DNA of 64,000 bases, taken from the sequence record NC_054933.1; one strand, 5' to 3'. The notes under the pieces were generated by a model, which had not been told where the DNA came from, searched no databases, and worked only from the letters and a program-made list of their open reading frames with translations. This DNA is from Escherichia phage teqhad. Shown in pieces: positions 1,997 to 36,004 of the stretch; position 1 is the stretch's first letter; each line of letters starts with the position of its first letter. The translations under genes and the position numbers were made by a program.

Positions 1997-3698
<1,702 letters not shown>

Positions 3699-3739
3699 TA
3701 AATATTATAAACTAATTAAAGCCCAGATTAGGAGAAATC

Positions 3740-6880
<3,141 letters not shown>

Positions 6881-28804: not shown

Positions 28805-29769
28805 TGTATTCTTTAGAGGAATTTAATAATCAAGCAATAAACGCAGATTTCCAACGTAATAATATGTTTAGCTGCGTTTTTGCGACAACTCCATCAACTA
28901 AAAGCTCTTCGTTGATAAGTTCAATTAGCAACTTTTCTTATAATAACTTGGGCCTAAATTCAGATTGGTTAGGATTGACTCAAGGTGATATTAATCAGGG
29001 AATTACCACGCTAATTACTGCTGGCACACAAAAACTGATAAGAAAATCAGGGGTTAGTAAATATCTTATTGGCGCTATGAGTCAACGTACAGTTCAAAGT
29101 TTATTAGGCTCATTTACAGTTGGTACATATTTAATTGACTTCTTTAACATGGCATATAACTCATCTGGATTGATGATATATTCTGTAAAAATGCCAGAGA
29201 ATAGATTATCCTATGAAACTGACTGGAACTATAACTCTCCTAATATTCGTATAACTGGAAGAGAATTAGACCCTTTGGTTATTTCATTTAGAATGGATTC
29301 AGAAGCTTGTAACTATCGTGCAATGCAAGACTGGGTTAACGCTGTTCAAGACCCAGTAACTGGATTGCGTGCTTTACCGCAAGATGTCGAGGCAGATATT
29401 CAGGTTAATCTTCATTCTCGTAATGGATTGCCTCATACTGCGGTGATGTTCACTGGATGCATTCCAATATCAGTGAGCGCTCCTGAGTTATCATATGATG
29501 GAGATAACCAAATAACTACATTTGACGTTACTTTTGCGTATAGAGTGATGCAGGCTGGAGCAGTTGATAGGCAAGCTGCGCTTGAATGGCTTGAATCTGC
29601 TGCTATAAATGGTATTCAAAGCGTTCTCGGAAATAGTGGAGGTGTTACTGGACTATCTAATTCGCTTTCACGACTCAGTAGATTAGGGGGAACTGCAGGA
29701 AGCATTTCAAACATTAATACTATGACAGGAATTGTCAATTCGCAAAGTAAAATATTAGGAGCAATATAA
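28804..29769 (+). CDS. 54: Baseplate tail-tube initiator gp54
   Basis: 321 aa; T4 gp54 size; ATGA-coupled to gene 48. Confidence 0.9.
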   Translation: MYSLEEFNNQAINADFQRNNMFSCVFATTPSTKSSSLISSISNFSYNNLGLNSDWLGLTQGDINQGITTLITAGTQKLIRKSGVSKYLIGAMSQRTVQSLLGSFTVGTYLIDFFNMAYNSSGLMIYSVKMPENRLSYETDWNYNSPNIRITGRELDPLVISFRMDSEACNYRAMQDWVNAVQDPVTGLRALPQDVEADIQVNLHSRNGLPHTAVMFTGCIPISVSAPELSYDGDNQITTFDVTFAYRVMQAGAVDRQAALEWLESAAINGIQSVLGNSGGVTGLSNSLSRLSRLGGTAGSISNINTMTGIVNSQSKILGAI

Positions 29770-29773
29770 CAAT

Positions 29774-29791
29774 GGGGACCTTTCGGTCCCC
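29774..29791. terminator. Bidirectional hairpin terminator between gene 54 and the convergent minus-strand block
   Basis: ggggacc-tttc-ggtcccc followed by T-rich run; lies between the two convergent stop codons. Confidence 0.55.
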
Positions 29792-29797
29792 ATATTT

Positions 29798-30088
29798 TTA
29801 TTTACGGAATGAAATAAAAGCAGCAACTGAAGCAACTAAACTGTCTTCAATATAAACCTCAATTTTTACCGGAGCTTCTGACTCAAATTTACCTGTTACT
29901 ATACCCTGAAAAATACTTTCAGTCTGTTCTGGCTTTGAAAAATTTTCAGAAGGAAAAATTCCGAACTTTTTATCTGTTCCAAAAATTTTAATAAATTCAT
30001 CGTAAACTGCTTCATTAAAAGCATTATCAGCAGGAATAACGCCTTCAACTACAAGTTCTTGACCTAAAAAGCGCAAAGAAGATTTCAT
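29798..30088 (-). CDS. Hypothetical protein (T4 alt.-3 region)
   Basis: 96 aa ORF; GAGGAA ribosome-binding site lies inside the 3' arm of the upstream hairpin element. Confidence 0.7.
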   Translation of the reverse strand: MKSSLRFLGQELVVEGVIPADNAFNEAVYDEFIKIFGTDKKFGIFPSENFSKPEQTESIFQGIVTGKFESEAPVKIEVYIEDSLVASVAAFISFRK

Positions 30089-30095
30089 TTTGTGT

Positions 30096-30149
30096 TCCTC
30101 ATGTTATGCCAGTAAGACTACTATAACACAACACGAGGGACTTGTAAAC
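30096..30149 (-). repeat. 54-bp promoter/hairpin element, copy 1 (51/54 identical to 45910..45963)
   Basis: Minus strand reads GTTTAC-N18-TATAGT; outer inverted repeat cctcatgtt/aacacgagg; 3' arm contains the ribosome-binding site of the downstream ORF. Confidence 0.6.
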
Positions 30150-32206
30150 TACATTTTGAACTTTTTAGACATTCCGTTGATGTTAACCAAAGAAGCCAAG
30201 ATTTGAGAAACTTCGTTTTCCTCTTCTTTTGATTCTTCTACAAGGAATTGATTAAATCCAGCCATTGGACGAACTTCACCAGTTTCCATTAGATGGTCGC
30301 CATCATATACCGATTCCTCTAATTGTTCAGAAGGAGGAACGATTGTACCTTCTATTAGATACTTGTTATAAGCAGTTTCTTTCATAAAGTACGTGCTCAC
30401 TTTATTAATCTTCAGTAAAATTCCACGCGGTAGAATAACTTCAGCTTCTGATGGAAATCCTGATAAATGACCTGGAACGATAACTTTGATTCGCTCAGCT
30501 CCTTTAATTACCATACCCACGCTAGTTTCAGCATCTTCATTAGCATATGTAGAATGACTACCCATATGCATCAAATCTTCTGCATCAACGGAACCTTCTC
30601 CTTCGCCAGAAAATACTGCGCCGGAATCATCTAGAGCCATATAGTTTTTACCGTGCTCACCGAAAATATTTGGTTTAAGCGATGTGGATACGAAGTTCTT
30701 GAAATAGAACATTTTGTTTTCAATATTATGACGCAAAGTTTTAAAGGTAACTTCTTGTCCACGGTAAAGTGTAGTTCCTGGAGGAAGAACTGAACCTTTA
30801 GCGAATGCAGAATCAAGCGTCTCGATGTGTTTAATAGCTCGTTCCATATATTCTTCACGGGTAGAATCTGGTTTACCCAAAAGGAACGAGTTCATTTCAA
30901 CATATGAATCTGCACAATAATCTTCAATTACGTCAGATTCAGCCTGAGTTAATCCTTTTGGAGTTACTTCAGTACTTGCATATTCATATGCCTGAGCGGC
31001 AGATTCATTAATCAATTTATAAATGCCATTCATGACAAATTGAATAATAGCTGTCTTTTCATCTGGCGTAGCTTTAGAACCTTTAGCTAAATCATTGACA
31101 ATTTTCTTAATAACATCAAAACTATTAGAAATATTAATATCAGCAAGATCGCTTAAAATTTTATCAGTTTTATAATCAAAGAATTCTTTATTCTTTAAAT
31201 ATTCTTGAGAACCTTGATATGTTATATCGCTCTGCAGCTTGATAGATGGATCGCGTAAACGTGCATGGGCCAATGCAATATGATTTCGGAAGTTTTCTAG
31301 TTCATAATCGTTAGATTTAAAACGAGAAGCACTTCTCATACCACCGATAGCTCCTTTGCTAAAGTTTGAACCAATCTGAATAACGCCAGAGTTCATCGGA
31401 CCTTCTGCTTTATATACCGGAACTTTAGATTCAAACTCTTGATATTTCTTAGCAGCGAAGCTATCACCCTGAAGTGAAGCATCAACAGTAGAATATTGAG
31501 CTTGTGCTGCTAATCGACGACTAATTTTAGTTTTCTGAATAACAGCTTGATCCGTGCGCTTATCATTTTCTAAAGCAATAGAAGCAGCAACAGCGACAGC
31601 TTTAGGAACAGCATTACCTGTTTTAACGTCTACATAAACATCACCAACCTTTGATTCAACTTTTGTGAATAACTCAGTTGAAATAGGAGGTACACCTGGA
31701 ATGTCTTCTAAATTGGCATTTTTACGGTAAACCATAATATATGCATATTTCTTATCATAGTCCCAGATTTCCTTTAAAAGAACATATCGACCTGCTCCTT
31801 TAGTACGTACTAAACGGTCAGCAATAACTTGCATTTGACGAGCTGCGCCATTTGTTTTACTTTTTAGTACGCGGAATAGGCATGCGTCGATTTTATACTG
31901 TTTCATTGTTTGAAGAGCAGTATCAAAAACAGCATTAATGACGCCAATTGGATTTCCACCCAAGTTTCTAAGCTTGACTAACGATAATTTCTCGTTGACA
32001 CCTATCATTACGATATGCATCATTTTGTCGCCTGGCTTAACGTTTTTATTTGTATCACCGCCAGAGGTGTATGTACAAAATCTAAATCCAGGAAGAACGC
32101 TTTCTTCACCGGCTTGAATAGCAAAAATTTGTGGTATTTTATGCTTAGGATTTAAGTTAACAACCGGCGCCGAAGCGCCGTCAAATAATTCTGTAATAAG
32201 TTCCAT
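30149..32206 (-). CDS. Alt-family NAD-protein ADP-ribosyltransferase paralog
   Basis: 685 aa; N-terminus MELITELFD shared with the neighbouring paralog; R/STS/ExE motifs present (LYRGQ, FVSTSLKP, SEAEVILPRG). Confidence 0.85.
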   Translation of the reverse strand: MELITELFDGASAPVVNLNPKHKIPQIFAIQAGEESVLPGFRFCTYTSGGDTNKNVKPGDKMMHIVMIGVNEKLSLVKLRNLGGNPIGVINAVFDTALQTMKQYKIDACLFRVLKSKTNGAARQMQVIADRLVRTKGAGRYVLLKEIWDYDKKYAYIMVYRKNANLEDIPGVPPISTELFTKVESKVGDVYVDVKTGNAVPKAVAVAASIALENDKRTDQAVIQKTKISRRLAAQAQYSTVDASLQGDSFAAKKYQEFESKVPVYKAEGPMNSGVIQIGSNFSKGAIGGMRSASRFKSNDYELENFRNHIALAHARLRDPSIKLQSDITYQGSQEYLKNKEFFDYKTDKILSDLADINISNSFDVIKKIVNDLAKGSKATPDEKTAIIQFVMNGIYKLINESAAQAYEYASTEVTPKGLTQAESDVIEDYCADSYVEMNSFLLGKPDSTREEYMERAIKHIETLDSAFAKGSVLPPGTTLYRGQEVTFKTLRHNIENKMFYFKNFVSTSLKPNIFGEHGKNYMALDDSGAVFSGEGEGSVDAEDLMHMGSHSTYANEDAETSVGMVIKGAERIKVIVPGHLSGFPSEAEVILPRGILLKINKVSTYFMKETAYNKYLIEGTIVPPSEQLEESVYDGDHLMETGEVRPMAGFNQFLVEESKEEENEVSQILASLVNINGMSKKFKM

Positions 32207-32209
32207 GAT

Positions 32210-34303
32210 TTATCCTTGAACGAACTTGTAAGGCATGTTTGTAATATCTATGCAAGACGCAATAATTCCAAGAGATGATTCTACTTTCTGTTTAACGTTT
32301 GATGAAACAAATGATGCAAAGTCAACTCTGTCTTCTATTTCAATATCACCTGTCATTGCAACCAATTCACCAGTTTCCATTAAATGGTCTCCATCATAGA
32401 TTACCGATTCGGTGAGCTCTTCCGTGGTCATAACTTCAGCTTGAATGAGTTTTGTATTATTAGATGTTGTTCCGTCATTATTAGAAGCATCAGTTATTTT
32501 ATTAACTTTGACCATCAATCCACGCGGTAGAATAACTTCAGCTTCTGTTGCTATTCCGAGACTTCCTGGATATACAACATTAACTTTATGAGCTCCATCA
32601 ATTGCCCATCCTATTTGAACTTTAACGTATTCAGGATTTTCTTTATACGCTCTTATTTCGTTTGGATTAATAGTTATTCCTTCTTCATTTTTATCAACTG
32701 TTAATTCATTGCGAGCTTCTGGTTCTAAAAGACCAATACCAGCATGTGTAATTCCAAAACGTCCAAAAATGATAGGAGTTAAAGAAGTAGATACAAAATT
32801 TCTGAAGTAGAACACTTTATTTTTAACTAGTGCTTCGTATATAGGAGCAGTCATACTTTGAGCACGATAAACTGTAATGCCTTCTGGTATACGGTCACCA
32901 TTTTCAAAAGCTGAATCTAAGTTATTTATAGCAGATTCAATTTCTTTTTCACTCATTACATCATATCGTTCTGGATTGTAACGACCTAAAAGAAGATTAT
33001 TAATGTCAGTATATCCTGAACCACAATATTCTCTAATACCTCTCTTTTGTGATGGAGTATATTTAGAACCATCACGAGCGATTGTAATATCAATCATAGG
33101 ACCAGCTCCTACGCCAGAGAAACTGTATATCATTCGTTTGAGGAATTTAGTTTTTGCTGCGTTCCAGGAATTTTTAGTTATTTCTTCCCAGACTTCATCT
33201 GGTTGTCCTTTACGATTTTTATTATGATTAGCAAGCCATTTATCTTTATAATCTTCAAAGAATTGATTTACAGCTGCTGCGTATTTCTCTAAACATTTTA
33301 TTGAAGTAGTTGGTTCATTTTTAATTGCATTAAAAATTACTTCTTTAATTTTTTCTGAAACTTCACCGACTTGACTCATTGGAAAGAATTTATAATCATA
33401 GTGAAGTTCATCTGCCGTTCCTTCAGCAATAATTTTTGCTGCCTTTGTTTTAGAAGCTAATGAATTAATTCCAATTTTCATTTCTTCTGCTTCGGGAATT
33501 AAAGGTGCAGTAGCTGGTTTATTAAAATTAGCTGCTGTAGATTCATACTTCTGGAATAATTCACTTTCAAATCTAGAAGATTCCAATGACTGGCTTTGTG
33601 CAATTGCTCTACGGGAAATTTTAACTTTAACGATTACAGCTTGGTCAGAACGTTTATCATTTTCTTGTGCAATAGATGCTGCAATTGCCTCATTTTTGGT
33701 TACTTGGGCTCCAGTATCTTTATTGATATAAACATCACCGACTTTCGATTCAACTTTAGTAAAGAGCTCGGTACTAATTTCCGGAACTCCTGGAATGTCT
33801 TCTAGTGATACATTTTTACGATGTATAAGAATATATGCATACTTTTTATCGTAATCCCAGAGTTCCTTAAGAAGGACGTATCTGCCACCTGAACGACTAC
33901 GGATAAGTCTATCAGCAATAACTTGAATTTGTCGAGCTTGACCAGCGGTTTTAGACTTAAGAATACGAAGCATACAAGCATCAATTTTATATTGACGCAT
34001 TGTTTGCATTGCAACAGTAAAAACTGAATTGATATAATTAATTGGGCTTGGACCAAGACCTTTTAATTTAGCAATTGAACCTTTAGCAGTTAATGTAAAA
34101 GGAACGATATGCATCATTTTATCGCCCATTTTTAAATCGCGATTAGTATCACCTCCAGATGTATACGTGCATAAACGAAAGCCTGGTTGTTCAATTGCAT
34201 CATCAACATGAACTGAAAAAATTTGTGGTATTTTCTTCTTTGGATTTAAGTTTGTAATCGGAAGAGTAGTATCTTCGTCAAATAATTCTGTAATGAGTTC
34301 CAT
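32210..34303 (-). CDS. alt: Alt ADP-ribosyltransferase (probable canonical alt; head-packaged)
   Basis: 697 aa from the second ATG (GAGG at 5 nt; track ORF starts at 34306); motifs VYRAQ, FVSTSLTP, TEAEVILPRG; own late promoter upstream. Confidence 0.8.
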   Translation of the reverse strand: MELITELFDEDTTLPITNLNPKKKIPQIFSVHVDDAIEQPGFRLCTYTSGGDTNRDLKMGDKMMHIVPFTLTAKGSIAKLKGLGPSPINYINSVFTVAMQTMRQYKIDACMLRILKSKTAGQARQIQVIADRLIRSRSGGRYVLLKELWDYDKKYAYILIHRKNVSLEDIPGVPEISTELFTKVESKVGDVYINKDTGAQVTKNEAIAASIAQENDKRSDQAVIVKVKISRRAIAQSQSLESSRFESELFQKYESTAANFNKPATAPLIPEAEEMKIGINSLASKTKAAKIIAEGTADELHYDYKFFPMSQVGEVSEKIKEVIFNAIKNEPTTSIKCLEKYAAAVNQFFEDYKDKWLANHNKNRKGQPDEVWEEITKNSWNAAKTKFLKRMIYSFSGVGAGPMIDITIARDGSKYTPSQKRGIREYCGSGYTDINNLLLGRYNPERYDVMSEKEIESAINNLDSAFENGDRIPEGITVYRAQSMTAPIYEALVKNKVFYFRNFVSTSLTPIIFGRFGITHAGIGLLEPEARNELTVDKNEEGITINPNEIRAYKENPEYVKVQIGWAIDGAHKVNVVYPGSLGIATEAEVILPRGLMVKVNKITDASNNDGTTSNNTKLIQAEVMTTEELTESVIYDGDHLMETGELVAMTGDIEIEDRVDFASFVSSNVKQKVESSLGIIASCIDITNMPYKFVQG

Positions 34304-34326
34304 CATATCCTCTCTAGTGTTTATTC

Positions 34327-34334
34327 TATTTATA
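34327..34334 (-). promoter_or_regulatory. Late promoter (TATAAATA on minus strand) upstream of alt
   Basis: Plus-strand TATTTATA about 20 nt upstream of the alt ATG. Confidence 0.5.
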
Positions 34335-34339
34335 AAATT

Positions 34340-34357
34340 AAAGGCCCGAAGGCCTTT
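34340..34357. terminator. Palindromic hairpin AAAGGCC-CGAA-GGCCTTT
   Basis: Perfect inverted repeat with GNRA-like loop flanked by A/T runs on both strands, between the 62-aa ORF and alt. Confidence 0.45.
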
Positions 34358-34544
34358 AATAATCTATTGGTAAGAGAGTACGATATATTTCAAACTTTGG
34401 ACCTTTTTCATAGGCATCAAATGTTTCTGTGAATTTATTATAAGCATATGCATCTATAAATTCAATCATGATTTGTGATACAGAAGTAGAAACATCTCCA
34501 CCTTCTTTTTGAGCCACGACAATTGTTTCTAAGTAAGCTTTCAT
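34356..34544 (-). CDS. Hypothetical small protein downstream of DNA ligase
   Basis: 62 aa ORF; start overlaps ligase stop (ATGA). Confidence 0.55.
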   Translation of the reverse strand: MKAYLETIVVAQKEGGDVSTSVSQIMIEFIDAYAYNKFTETFDAYEKGPKFEIYRTLLPIDY

Positions 34545-36004
34545 AAACCAGTTACCTCATGAAAATTACCAAATACATCCTCGAATGTATTAGCTTTAGT
34601 TTTATCTTCACGCAAACGAATCGCAATCGGAAGAAATAATTTAACGTAATCAGTGCGGCCATCAGATTTTAACCAACCGTTGCATTCGCACTCTAGAATT
34701 TTTCCAATATAATAATTTTGGTTTTCCATAATGCGAGTACGGTCAAGTTCATGTGATTTTACGCCGGCTTTATCTTTTAAGCCTGAACCAGCATTTACTT
34801 TAATTTTTCCACACTCTGACTCAAGAATAAATCCACCCGCTTTAGTAGGGTCTTTACGGTGAGGATAAATTCCTACAATTTTTAAATCAACATCAATTAC
34901 TTCTTTAAATTTATAGAGATTTTTTGAACGAGCATTTTCCCATAATCCATCGATATTTTTGAGAATAATACCTTCAAGACCTTGATCAATATACTTTTTG
35001 TAAATTACCTTAGCTTCATCTAGGTTATTTACTACTTGGTTTTCAATTAAAATTACTTTATCATAGCCTGATGTCATTTGTTCTAGTTTAGAAAAACGTA
35101 CATCATATTTTAAACGAAATGCTGGAAGACCATATATTTCTACTAATGGAACATAATCCCAGACCTGAAACTTCATGCATTGTGCTTCTTTTTCAGAAAT
35201 GGTTCCCTTTAAAGATTTATTGGCGATGCCATTAGATGCAGTACGTGATTCAGCTACTTCGGCGAATTCTTTAGCTTTACTAATTTCAGGATAAGCATCA
35301 AAAAGAAAATCTAGGCCTTCTGGTTCCTTTTCAACTTGCTCATGGTATACCAATTCGCCATCAATTAACACACCTTCTGGATGAATCTGGCGGGCTTCAG
35401 CAGTCATTTTGATTAACTCTTCCTTAAGAAGATCTAATCCTAGATATTCATTGCCAGCTCGTGATAAAAGACGAACATCATCTAATTCATCACCTCTGAC
35501 TTCGGCAAAGCACCGAGCTCCATCAGCTTTTAACTGGGCAAAGGCTGGAAATTTGATATTCTTATTAATGCCTTTTTCATCATAAGAACTTGCAAGCATT
35601 TGAGGTTGTTCAGGAATTAAACCTGGCCAAACTTTGTTCGCAATAGATACTGATGCACCGCATTCAAGGTCTCGCATCATTACTCGACGTAATACTTCAA
35701 CATCATCTTTTTTACCGTCAGTAATATATCCAGTTAATTCCTCAATTGCCGCATTTCCAGTCAATTTCCGAGTAGCTAACGTGAATTCAATGAAGTCGAG
35801 CATATCGGTAAGAGTCAACATTCCAAAACTCTGGGTAGCAATACCCGGTTTAGGCCATTTCTTGATATAATACTGTAACCCACGAGAATAAGTCAGACGA
35901 TATACTCGTTTAAGCAATTCATTATCTTTATTCTTTTCAAGAATTGCTTGCTTCTGCTTAGTTGAACCAATAGATGCTATTTCGTTCAGAATTTTAAGAA
36001 TCAT
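34541..36004 (-). CDS. 30: ATP-dependent DNA ligase
   Basis: 487 aa; adenylation lysine motif (AQLKADGAR); essentially the T4 DNA ligase sequence. Confidence 0.98.
   Translation of the reverse strand: MILKILNEIASIGSTKQKQAILEKNKDNELLKRVYRLTYSRGLQYYIKKWPKPGIATQSFGMLTLTDMLDFIEFTLATRKLTGNAAIEELTGYITDGKKDDVEVLRRVMMRDLECGASVSIANKVWPGLIPEQPQMLASSYDEKGINKNIKFPAFAQLKADGARCFAEVRGDELDDVRLLSRAGNEYLGLDLLKEELIKMTAEARQIHPEGVLIDGELVYHEQVEKEPEGLDFLFDAYPEISKAKEFAEVAESRTASNGIANKSLKGTISEKEAQCMKFQVWDYVPLVEIYGLPAFRLKYDVRFSKLEQMTSGYDKVILIENQVVNNLDEAKVIYKKYIDQGLEGIILKNIDGLWENARSKNLYKFKEVIDVDLKIVGIYPHRKDPTKAGGFILESECGKIKVNAGSGLKDKAGVKSHELDRTRIMENQNYYIGKILECECNGWLKSDGRTDYVKLFLPIAIRLREDKTKANTFEDVFGNFHEVTGL

Follow-up and report, generated by a model that had tools for sequence, protein, structure and literature searches.

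Tandem alt genes encoding two predicted ADP-ribosyltransferases in the alt region of Escherichia phage teqhad

Does the gene that directly follows alt in many T-even phages encode a second working enzyme, a back-up of the first, or a relic of it? The question arises from a 64,000-nucleotide stretch of Escherichia phage teqhad (sequence record NC_054933.1; the whole stretch is referred to as the window), in which two long open reading frames (ORFs) lie head to tail with a gap of 3 nt between them. A preliminary description of this DNA, prepared from its letters, had reported adjacent ORFs of 685 and 697 amino acids, and both were found on the minus strand: alt (copy 1; 697 amino acids plus stop, the ortholog of T2 and RB14 alt) at 32210..34303, and a full-length alt paralog (copy 2; 685 amino acids plus stop, termed 'alt.-2' in RB14 and RB32) at 30149..32206. 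All features described below are on the minus strand unless otherwise stated. By analogy with T4 Alt, it is fairly probable that both paralogs are late, packaged, gp21-trimmed and injected mono-ADP-ribosyltransferases of the arginine type, and that they act on different substrates.

The assignment of both copies to the Alt-family ADP-ribosyltransferases (ARTs) of the R-S-E class, with their catalytic residues intact, is supported by several sequence comparisons. Pfam family PF03496 (ADPrib_exo_Tox) scored 129.9 bits for alt and 71.9 bits for copy 2, with a gathering cut-off of 23.4. The 'Alt-like' profile phrog_802 matched residues 1-696 of alt (E = 3.4e-273) and residues 1-685 of copy 2 (E = 1.6e-256), and by this profile and by alignment both copies are homologous to T4 Alt over their full length, including the N-terminal domain and the C-terminal tail. 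The precomputed Pfam domains of close relatives all comprise PF03496 and PF26846, and NCBIfam holds no model for either protein. The ART domain covers approximately residues 421-632 of alt (32408..33043; Pfam and alignment) and residues 411-631 of copy 2 (30314..30976; Pfam, profile and model). The Arg, Ser-Thr-Ser (STS) and Glu-x-Glu (ExE) motifs, which had been described as intact in both proteins, were all present (copy 2/alt: LYRGQ/VYRAQ, FVSTSLKP/FVSTSLTP and SEAEVILPRG/TEAEVILPRG). The catalytic codons are those of R480 (32864-32866), S505/T506/S507 (32783-32791), E587 (32543-32545) and E589 (32537-32539) in alt, and of R482 (30761-30763), S507/T508/S509 (30680-30688), E587 (30446-30448) and E589 (30440-30442) in copy 2. 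Alignment of 122 homologs showed the Arg, the first Ser and both Glu to be invariant (122/122) and the third Ser to be kept in 120; no catalytic residue was lost in either copy. When the family profile was aligned with a C3-like toxin, the Arg fell on the Arg of the toxin's Y-R-G motif and the ExE on its Q-x-E. The second Glu of this motif in T4 Alt (E577) is needed for activity, which is abolished in E577A (PMC11404850).

A single-sequence search of the PDB sequences with copy 2 returned nothing at E <= 0.01, and toxin ARTs were reached only by profile search. The AlphaFold (AF2) model of copy 2 had a predicted local distance difference test score (pLDDT) of 76.7. Foldseek analysis of this model identified the arginine-specific Vis toxin as the best match (E = 3.6e-8, target-normalised template modelling (TM) score of 0.68-0.71), with C3, VIP2, iota Ia and CDTa also matched. 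The ExE motif and the arginine specificity of the closest structural relative point to arginine as the probable acceptor.

The 685 codons of copy 2 are uninterrupted. Compared with RB14 and T2, the gene carries 62-77 synonymous and 7-14 non-synonymous differences, giving a ratio of non-synonymous to synonymous substitution rates (dN/dS) of 0.028-0.046; it is as tight as alt itself, for which the ratio was 0.033-0.088. Purifying selection on copy 2 is strong, and the possibility that one copy might be a pseudogene found no support. Copy 2 could nevertheless be a paralog in decay or without catalytic function, a pseudo-enzyme or just a structural component of the core, as its loss in T4-type phages and a Pfam score weaker than that of Alt would allow. 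We consider this very improbable, given the uninterrupted 685-codon frame, a dN/dS of 0.03-0.05, the invariance of all of the catalytic residues, the intact predicted ART fold, and the 772 member sequences of its 99%-identity protein cluster.

The paralog is also widely distributed. A tblastn search identified copy 2 at an identity of at least 80% in 401 phage records, and a full-length paralog is present in about 400 of about 500 Tequatrovirus records, T2 included. A megablast search with positions 29700-34600 returned 541 phage records, 364 of which hold at least 80% of that segment; the best match was Escherichia phage Kelasse (98.5%), with RB14, RB18 and T2 at about 97%. Both genes are split in the record of Shigella phage sb4. 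Decay was rejected as the cause, as ligase and gp48 are also split in this record, which indicates a poor assembly.

The likeness between the two copies is uneven along their length. BLASTP aligned them end to end with 41% identity (E = 4e-163). The N-terminal region of approximately 230 amino acids had been called near-identical, which overstated the case: over about 238 amino acids (residues 1-238, copy 2 numbering) the measured identity is 67-68%, with 65.7% identity at the nucleotide level and about 2 synonymous substitutions per synonymous site (dS). The divergence noted for the central regions was borne out, with an identity of about 20% in the centre (residues 239-410, copy 2 numbering) and of 35-39% in the ART domain. 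The C-terminal tails are 31-44% identical, varying with the alignment and the boundaries chosen. Recent gene conversion between the two N-terminal domains was considered and is ruled out by the dS of about 2 and the nucleotide identity of 65.7%.

The divergence lies in the helical centre, in the long insert between STS and ExE, and at the first turn of the ADP-ribosylating toxin turn-turn (ARTT) loop. In this enzyme class it is these regions that govern which substrate is chosen, and for this reason we suggest that the two enzymes have different substrates. At the turn-1 residue of the ARTT loop, which precedes the first Glu by three positions, the copy-2 lineage has Phe or Tyr (F584 in the window, 30455-30457), the Alt of this phage has Ile, and 102 T4-type Alts have Pro. 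This residue helps C3 and iota-type toxins to recognise their targets. The targets of the second enzyme had been described as uncharacterised, and a literature search likewise found no functional or proteomic study of the second Alt and no description of its targets.

Alternatively, the two enzymes may be redundant, providing a higher injected ART dose or a back-up directed at the targets of Alt (RNA polymerase alpha and its other substrates). The architecture, catalytic motifs and processing sites are alike in both copies, T4 fares well without copy 2, and T4 Alt is itself non-essential (PMC9026906). However, redundancy does not sit well with the low identity of the centre and the ART domain when each copy has a dN/dS below 0.09 among its orthologs, nor with the systematic difference between the lineages in the ARTT turn-1 residue. 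In addition, each lineage has kept to its own position in both Tequatrovirus and Dhakavirus. Between these two genera, the centre and ART are 67% and 94% identical for copy 1 and 47% and 58% identical for copy 2, compared with 15-37% in cross-comparisons; by these identities, the orthology of the centre and ART modules follows gene position. Redundancy is thus unlikely, and we favour two enzymes with different substrates.

Both proteins carry sites corresponding to those at which T4 Alt is cut by gp21. Mass spectrometry of T4 heads placed these cuts at ITE-6 and LTE-619 (PMC5694885), and they take 6 N-terminal and 63 C-terminal residues off the T4 protein (PMC5694885, PMC9026906). The N-terminal propeptide MELITE is present in alt (34286..34303) and in copy 2 (32189..32206); it had been noted as fitting the prohead-protease pattern, and it equals the published ITE-6 site of T4 Alt (PMC5694885). 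At the other end, LTE-619 of T4 aligns with LTE-632 of alt and LEE-631 of copy 2, followed in each case by SV(I)YDGDHLMETGE. The C-terminal propeptide of alt would comprise residues 633-697 (32213..32407), starting with SVIYDGDHLMETGE, and that predicted for copy 2 residues 632-685 (30152..30313), starting with SVYDGDHLMETGE. The YDGDHLMETGE block, previously recorded as common to the two C-termini, is indeed present in both; because T4 LTE-619 aligns just before it, the block opens the C-terminal propeptide and lies outside the mature enzyme. Cleavage at the LME within this block was considered and set aside in favour of the published LTE site, which lies 11 residues upstream. The C-terminal site, LxE followed by Ser, recurs in eight Alt proteins representing four genera, and at both ends P3 is L, I or M and P1 is E in 122/122 homologs. 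The predicted mature products are residues 7-632 of Alt (70.1 kDa) and residues 7-631 of copy 2 (69.2 kDa), and the C-terminal propeptides are acidic (isoelectric points of 4.2 and 4.6 for Alt and copy 2, respectively).

As gp21 sites would serve no purpose in a protein that does not encounter gp21 within the prohead, we infer that copy 2 is packaged like Alt; this is the main argument for its packaging. A different possibility is that copy 2 is an active ART that stays unpackaged and acts late inside the producing cell, and is not a delivered effector. Packaging has been shown for T4 Alt only, the core-targeting mechanism of Alt is not understood (PMC9958956), and the N-terminal domains of the two copies differ by a third. 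Yet copy 2 has kept both the MELITE propeptide and the LxE|SVYDGDHLMETGE site, which are sensible only for a prohead-protease substrate, and the N-terminal domains of both copies track each other in three genera, as would be expected of proteins fitted to the same head. An unpackaged copy 2 is therefore improbable. By analogy with T4 Alt, it is most likely that both enzymes are packaged, processed and injected, with different substrates.

The mechanism we propose is as follows. Alt and copy 2 would be transcribed late from the promoter at 34327-34334, and they share a single plan: a 6-residue N-terminal propeptide ending in ITE, an alpha/beta domain of about 230 amino acids, a helical centre, the ART domain, and an acidic propeptide of about 55-65 amino acids after L-x-E. 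Both proteins would enter the prohead core, where gp21 would remove both propeptides and leave products of about 70 and 69 kDa. Ejected with the DNA, the two enzymes would then modify arginines of host proteins by ADP-ribosylation as soon as infection begins, each with its own substrates.

Several points weigh against this proposal. A literature search found no experimental evidence of copy 2 in virions, or of its processing, injection or activity, and no virion proteomics paper on a phage bearing copy 2. The gene has been lost in T4 and about 100 relatives and is thus dispensable on laboratory hosts. The Pfam bit score of copy 2 (71.9) is below that of Alt (129.9), and its AF2 model is of medium confidence, having been built from a shallow alignment of 20 sequences. 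Finally, the difference in substrate specificity is deduced only from which segments diverge.

The absence of copy 2 from T4 can be traced in the T4 genome. T-even phages had been described as carrying alt and an alt-like neighbour, which holds for hundreds of T-even genomes, but T4 itself has only a deleted remnant. The slot after alt in the T4 record (NC_000866) contains the small ORFs alt.-1 (61 amino acids) and alt.-2 (67 amino acids), labelled there as an ancient duplication of the 5' part of alt. Their translations correspond to residues 1-53 and 62-116 of copy 2. The matching PHROGs (23015 and 15247, 'unknown function') score higher for copy 2 than for Alt, at 137.9 versus 77.8 bits and 129 versus 70.3 bits, respectively. 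In DNA, the T4 segment shows 96% identity to positions 31859-32225 of the window, the 5' end of copy 2 (approximately 116 codons). In T4, one A has been lost from an A-run, producing a 1-nt frameshift, and after a gap of 1,699 bp the sequence resumes in the last codons of copy 2. The 9-bp direct repeat CTAAAAAGT occurs once at the T4 junction, and in the window it is intact at both ends of the missing segment, with the upstream copy (31859..31867) at the left end of the T4 deletion and the downstream copy (30160..30168) at its right end. This pattern, with the intact gene in the window, indicates that alt.-1 and alt.-2 of T4 are what a deletion has left of a full-length paralog. Of 500 matching records, chosen as a spread sample, about one-fifth had the T4 junction and about four-fifths were uninterrupted up to it, in agreement with the tblastn count. 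The loss of copy 2 from T4 may explain why no studies of the second enzyme were found.

A separate observation concerns T4_ev151 (LR597660.1), which is named as a T4 derivative. At 2501-4588 it carries a T2-type alt of 695 amino acids, 97% identical to that of the window, and not the 682-amino-acid T4 allele. It also has the T4-type alt.-1/alt.-2 remnant, which together with the T2-type alt indicates a recombinant locus.

Tandem pairs are found elsewhere in the Straboviridae, and alt paralogs in RB49, 44RR and T4 have already been noted (Nolan et al. 2006, PMC1524935). Dhakavirus IME281 has a tandem pair with a 3-nt gap, as in the window, and Biquartavirus L9-6 has two full-length copies. In Krischvirus Ec_Makalu_003 (3923-6877), a full-length Alt is followed by a 274-amino-acid stand-alone ART with no N-terminal domain, which is another outcome of duplication at the alt locus. 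Within the same genome, the N-terminal domains of the two copies are 67%, 67% and 55% identical in Tequatrovirus, Dhakavirus and Biquartavirus, respectively; between genera the identity is 47% or less. This within-genome closeness is limited to the N-terminal domains and is not seen in the effector parts. It could reflect old gene conversion (concerted evolution) or the co-adaptation of both copies to the same head.

The copy-1 ART module (32408-33043) is 93-94% identical to that of Dhakavirus IME281 in protein and 88.9% identical in DNA, with a dS of 0.5. The ligases of the same two genera are 65% identical, with a dS above 2, and the N-terminal domain and C-terminal propeptide of copy 1 are only about 47% identical to those of IME281. 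An identity of 88.9% for the ART module, set against 65% for ligase, suggests that the ART cassette alone was recently exchanged between the genera. Among metagenomic relatives, the copy-2 centre and ART (98-100% identical) occur with another N-terminal domain (70-75%), and the same N-terminal domain (93%) occurs with another centre and ART (59% and 72%). On the evidence of these comparisons, the Alt family behaves as a modular one, in which a genus-specific N-terminal module is joined near residue 238-240 to exchangeable effector cassettes.

The N-terminal alpha/beta domain itself comprises residues 7-240 of alt (33584..34285), where it is 100% identical to T4 Alt and 67-68% identical to copy 2, and residues 7-238 of copy 2 (31493..32188), where it was modelled by AF2 with a pLDDT of 84.5. 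No close solved relative of the copy 2 domain model was found. Foldseek comparison with viral models hinted at the same fold, at low identity, at the N-terminus of non-ART proteins from unrelated myoviruses. An exhaustive hidden Markov model search with the two N-terminal domains returned only 74 cluster representatives, and almost every one was as long as an Alt protein (about 600-710 amino acids). When 10 of the weakest or atypically sized of these hits were scanned with Pfam, an ART was recognised in five, nothing in four, and only spurious domains in one. On these results, the notion that the N-terminal domain is a general delivery module fused to many effectors is no more than a weak hint.

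The pair appears to be expressed from a single signal. A T4-type late promoter, TATAAATA, is located at 34327..34334, 23 nt ahead of the alt start codon; it is kept in RB14, T2 and T4, and occurs as the variant CATAAATA in Dhakavirus IME281. This is the only conserved late promoter for the pair, and copy 2 has no conserved one of its own, which bears out the earlier statement that only the ligase-proximal gene has a late promoter. The alt gene of T4 is a late gene (PMC9697503). A second TATAAATA octamer is present inside alt at 32923-32930, 717 nt upstream of the copy 2 start, in RB14 and T2 as well as in the window, and is absent from T4, T4_ev151 and IME281. It was rejected as a copy 2 promoter, being neither conserved nor in need of further explanation, as it spells the codons for A-I-N-N; it is probably a coding coincidence. 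The 3-nt intergenic gap suggests co-transcription of alt and copy 2, possibly with coupled translation. The Shine-Dalgarno sequence of copy 2 (AAGGA, 32213..32217), 6 nt before its ATG, lies in the last alt codons, just before the stop, and that of alt (GAGAGGA) is at 34308..34314, 4 nt before the ATG at 34303. A longer ORF, 32210..34306, opens with Met-Met. Its second ATG, at 34303, gives the 697-amino-acid protein beginning MELITE, and is favoured as the alt start by its better spacing from GAGAGGA and its use in the RB14, T2 and T4 records.

The ends of the late unit are marked by hairpins. At 34337..34360, a 10-bp hairpin (AUUAAAGGCC-UUCG-GGCCUUUAAU, -13.5 kcal/mol, z = -2.9) followed by UUUU overlaps the alt.1 stop codon and directly precedes the late promoter. 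It is kept in RB14, T2, T4 and IME281, and looks like a terminator insulating the late unit from upstream transcription. A perfect 9-bp, GC-rich, bidirectional terminator-like hairpin (29772-29793, both strands) lies between the converging gp54 and alt.-3 genes and reads as the terminator that closes the late unit. Immediately after the copy 2 stop and before alt.-3, there is a promoter-like site of the T4 early type (TTTACA-17-TATAGT, 30120-30148).

From 29.7 to 36 kb, the minus strand of the window carries, in order, DNA ligase (34541-36004), alt.1 (62 amino acids, 34356-34544), the 697/698-amino-acid ORF, the 685-amino-acid ORF and alt.-3 (96 amino acids, 29798-30088; DUF5498/PF17602); gp54 and gp48 lie on the plus strand and converge on the alt-region genes. 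The pair thus stands between gene 30 (ligase)/alt.1 and alt.-3/gene 54, as in the T4 Alt family. The region is the alt region of a T-even phage, with the pair probably forming a two-gene late transcription unit of a T2-like Tequatrovirus. In existing records, the two long genes are named alt and alt.-2 (RB14, RB32), or both are called 'Alt-like RNA polymerase ADP-ribosyltransferase' (RefSeq). With regard to the neighbouring genes, alt.1 matched Pfam PF24647 'Phage_blade' (E = 7.5e-29) and PHROG 1976 (unknown function), and T4 can evade CmdTAC, a defence system, through C-terminal extensions of Alt.-3 (PMC11618068).

Among phage enzymes that travel in the capsid and are injected to reprogramme the host, Alt is the textbook case, and almost all that is known of it comes from T4. 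The tandem pair itself is ordinary and already known, being annotated in hundreds of records and in print since 2006. The present analysis adds the placement of the common C-terminal block in the propeptide, the recognition of T4 alt.-1 and alt.-2 as a repeat-mediated deletion remnant, and the modular mosaic of the family. T4 is the exception, as about four-fifths of sequenced Tequatroviruses, including T2, keep a second, strongly conserved Alt-type enzyme. We tentatively suggest that most T-evens, unlike T4, may inject two different ARTs, that copy 2 may have host targets of its own, and that the Alt family may operate as a cassette system. The target of copy 2 is possibly a defence or stress-response protein. 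If copy 2 is injected and has its own targets, some of what T-even phages do in the first minute to take over the host has so far escaped study, and there would be a ready genetic explanation for some of the differences between T2 or T6 and T4 in host takeover or defence sensitivity. Module swapping of the kind observed here (89% DNA identity for the copy-1 ART, 65% for ligase) is typical of effector genes under arms-race selection.

The closest known system is T4 Alt (gpAlt, UniProt P12726), a packaged and injected NAD:arginine ART with the same slot, late promoter and domain order, and with the R/STS/ExE motifs and the ITE-6 and LTE gp21 sites found in the copies described here. Copy 1 is 72% identical to T4 Alt overall, but unevenly so: the N-terminal domain is 100% identical and the C-terminal propeptide 96%, compared with 34% for the centre and 68% for the ART. 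Its centre and ART cassette is the T2-type allele, unlike that of T4 Alt. RNA polymerase alpha Arg265 is among the known Alt targets, and is known for the T4 allele only; a literature search found no biochemistry for either Alt allele of the present phage. Copy 2 is a separate lineage, 41% identical to T4 Alt overall and 13-20% identical in the centre, with an aromatic ARTT turn-1 residue in place of Pro. Two Alt-like genes also stand head to tail in the same slot in Dhakavirus IME281 and JS10, Biquartavirus 44RR and L9-6, and RB49-like Krischvirus. The Dhakavirus pair resembles the present one in its 3-nt gap and in its positional orthology in the centre and ART; the pairs differ in that their N-terminal domains are genus-specific, and the Biquartavirus copies lack positional orthology in the ART domain.

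Among other phage proteins, T4 ModA and ModB belong to the same R-S-E class and modify host transcription and translation proteins (PMC5512222, PMC10468400), but they are early proteins of about 200 amino acids that are unpackaged and lack the N-terminal domain, the propeptides and the late promoter. The bacterial R-S-E toxins (Vis, the C3 exoenzymes, VIP2, iota Ia, CDTa and Certhrax) share the ART fold, the NAD-binding Arg, the STS and the catalytic Glu. Their identity to the phage enzymes is only 13-20%, the phage enzymes have a longer insert between STS and ExE, and delivery is by the phage head for the Alt enzymes and by a binary-toxin or secretion route for the toxins. With respect to packaging, there is a parallel with the internal proteins (IPs), which, like Alt, are packaged in the core, trimmed by gp21 at (L/I)xE and ejected with the DNA, and which are hypervariable between relatives and serve to take over the host or to counter its defences (PMC9026906, PMC9958956). 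Unlike Alt, an enzyme of about 70 kDa that is present in about 40 copies and processed at both ends, the IPs are small, basic proteins that carry a 10-residue capsid-targeting sequence and number about 360 copies.

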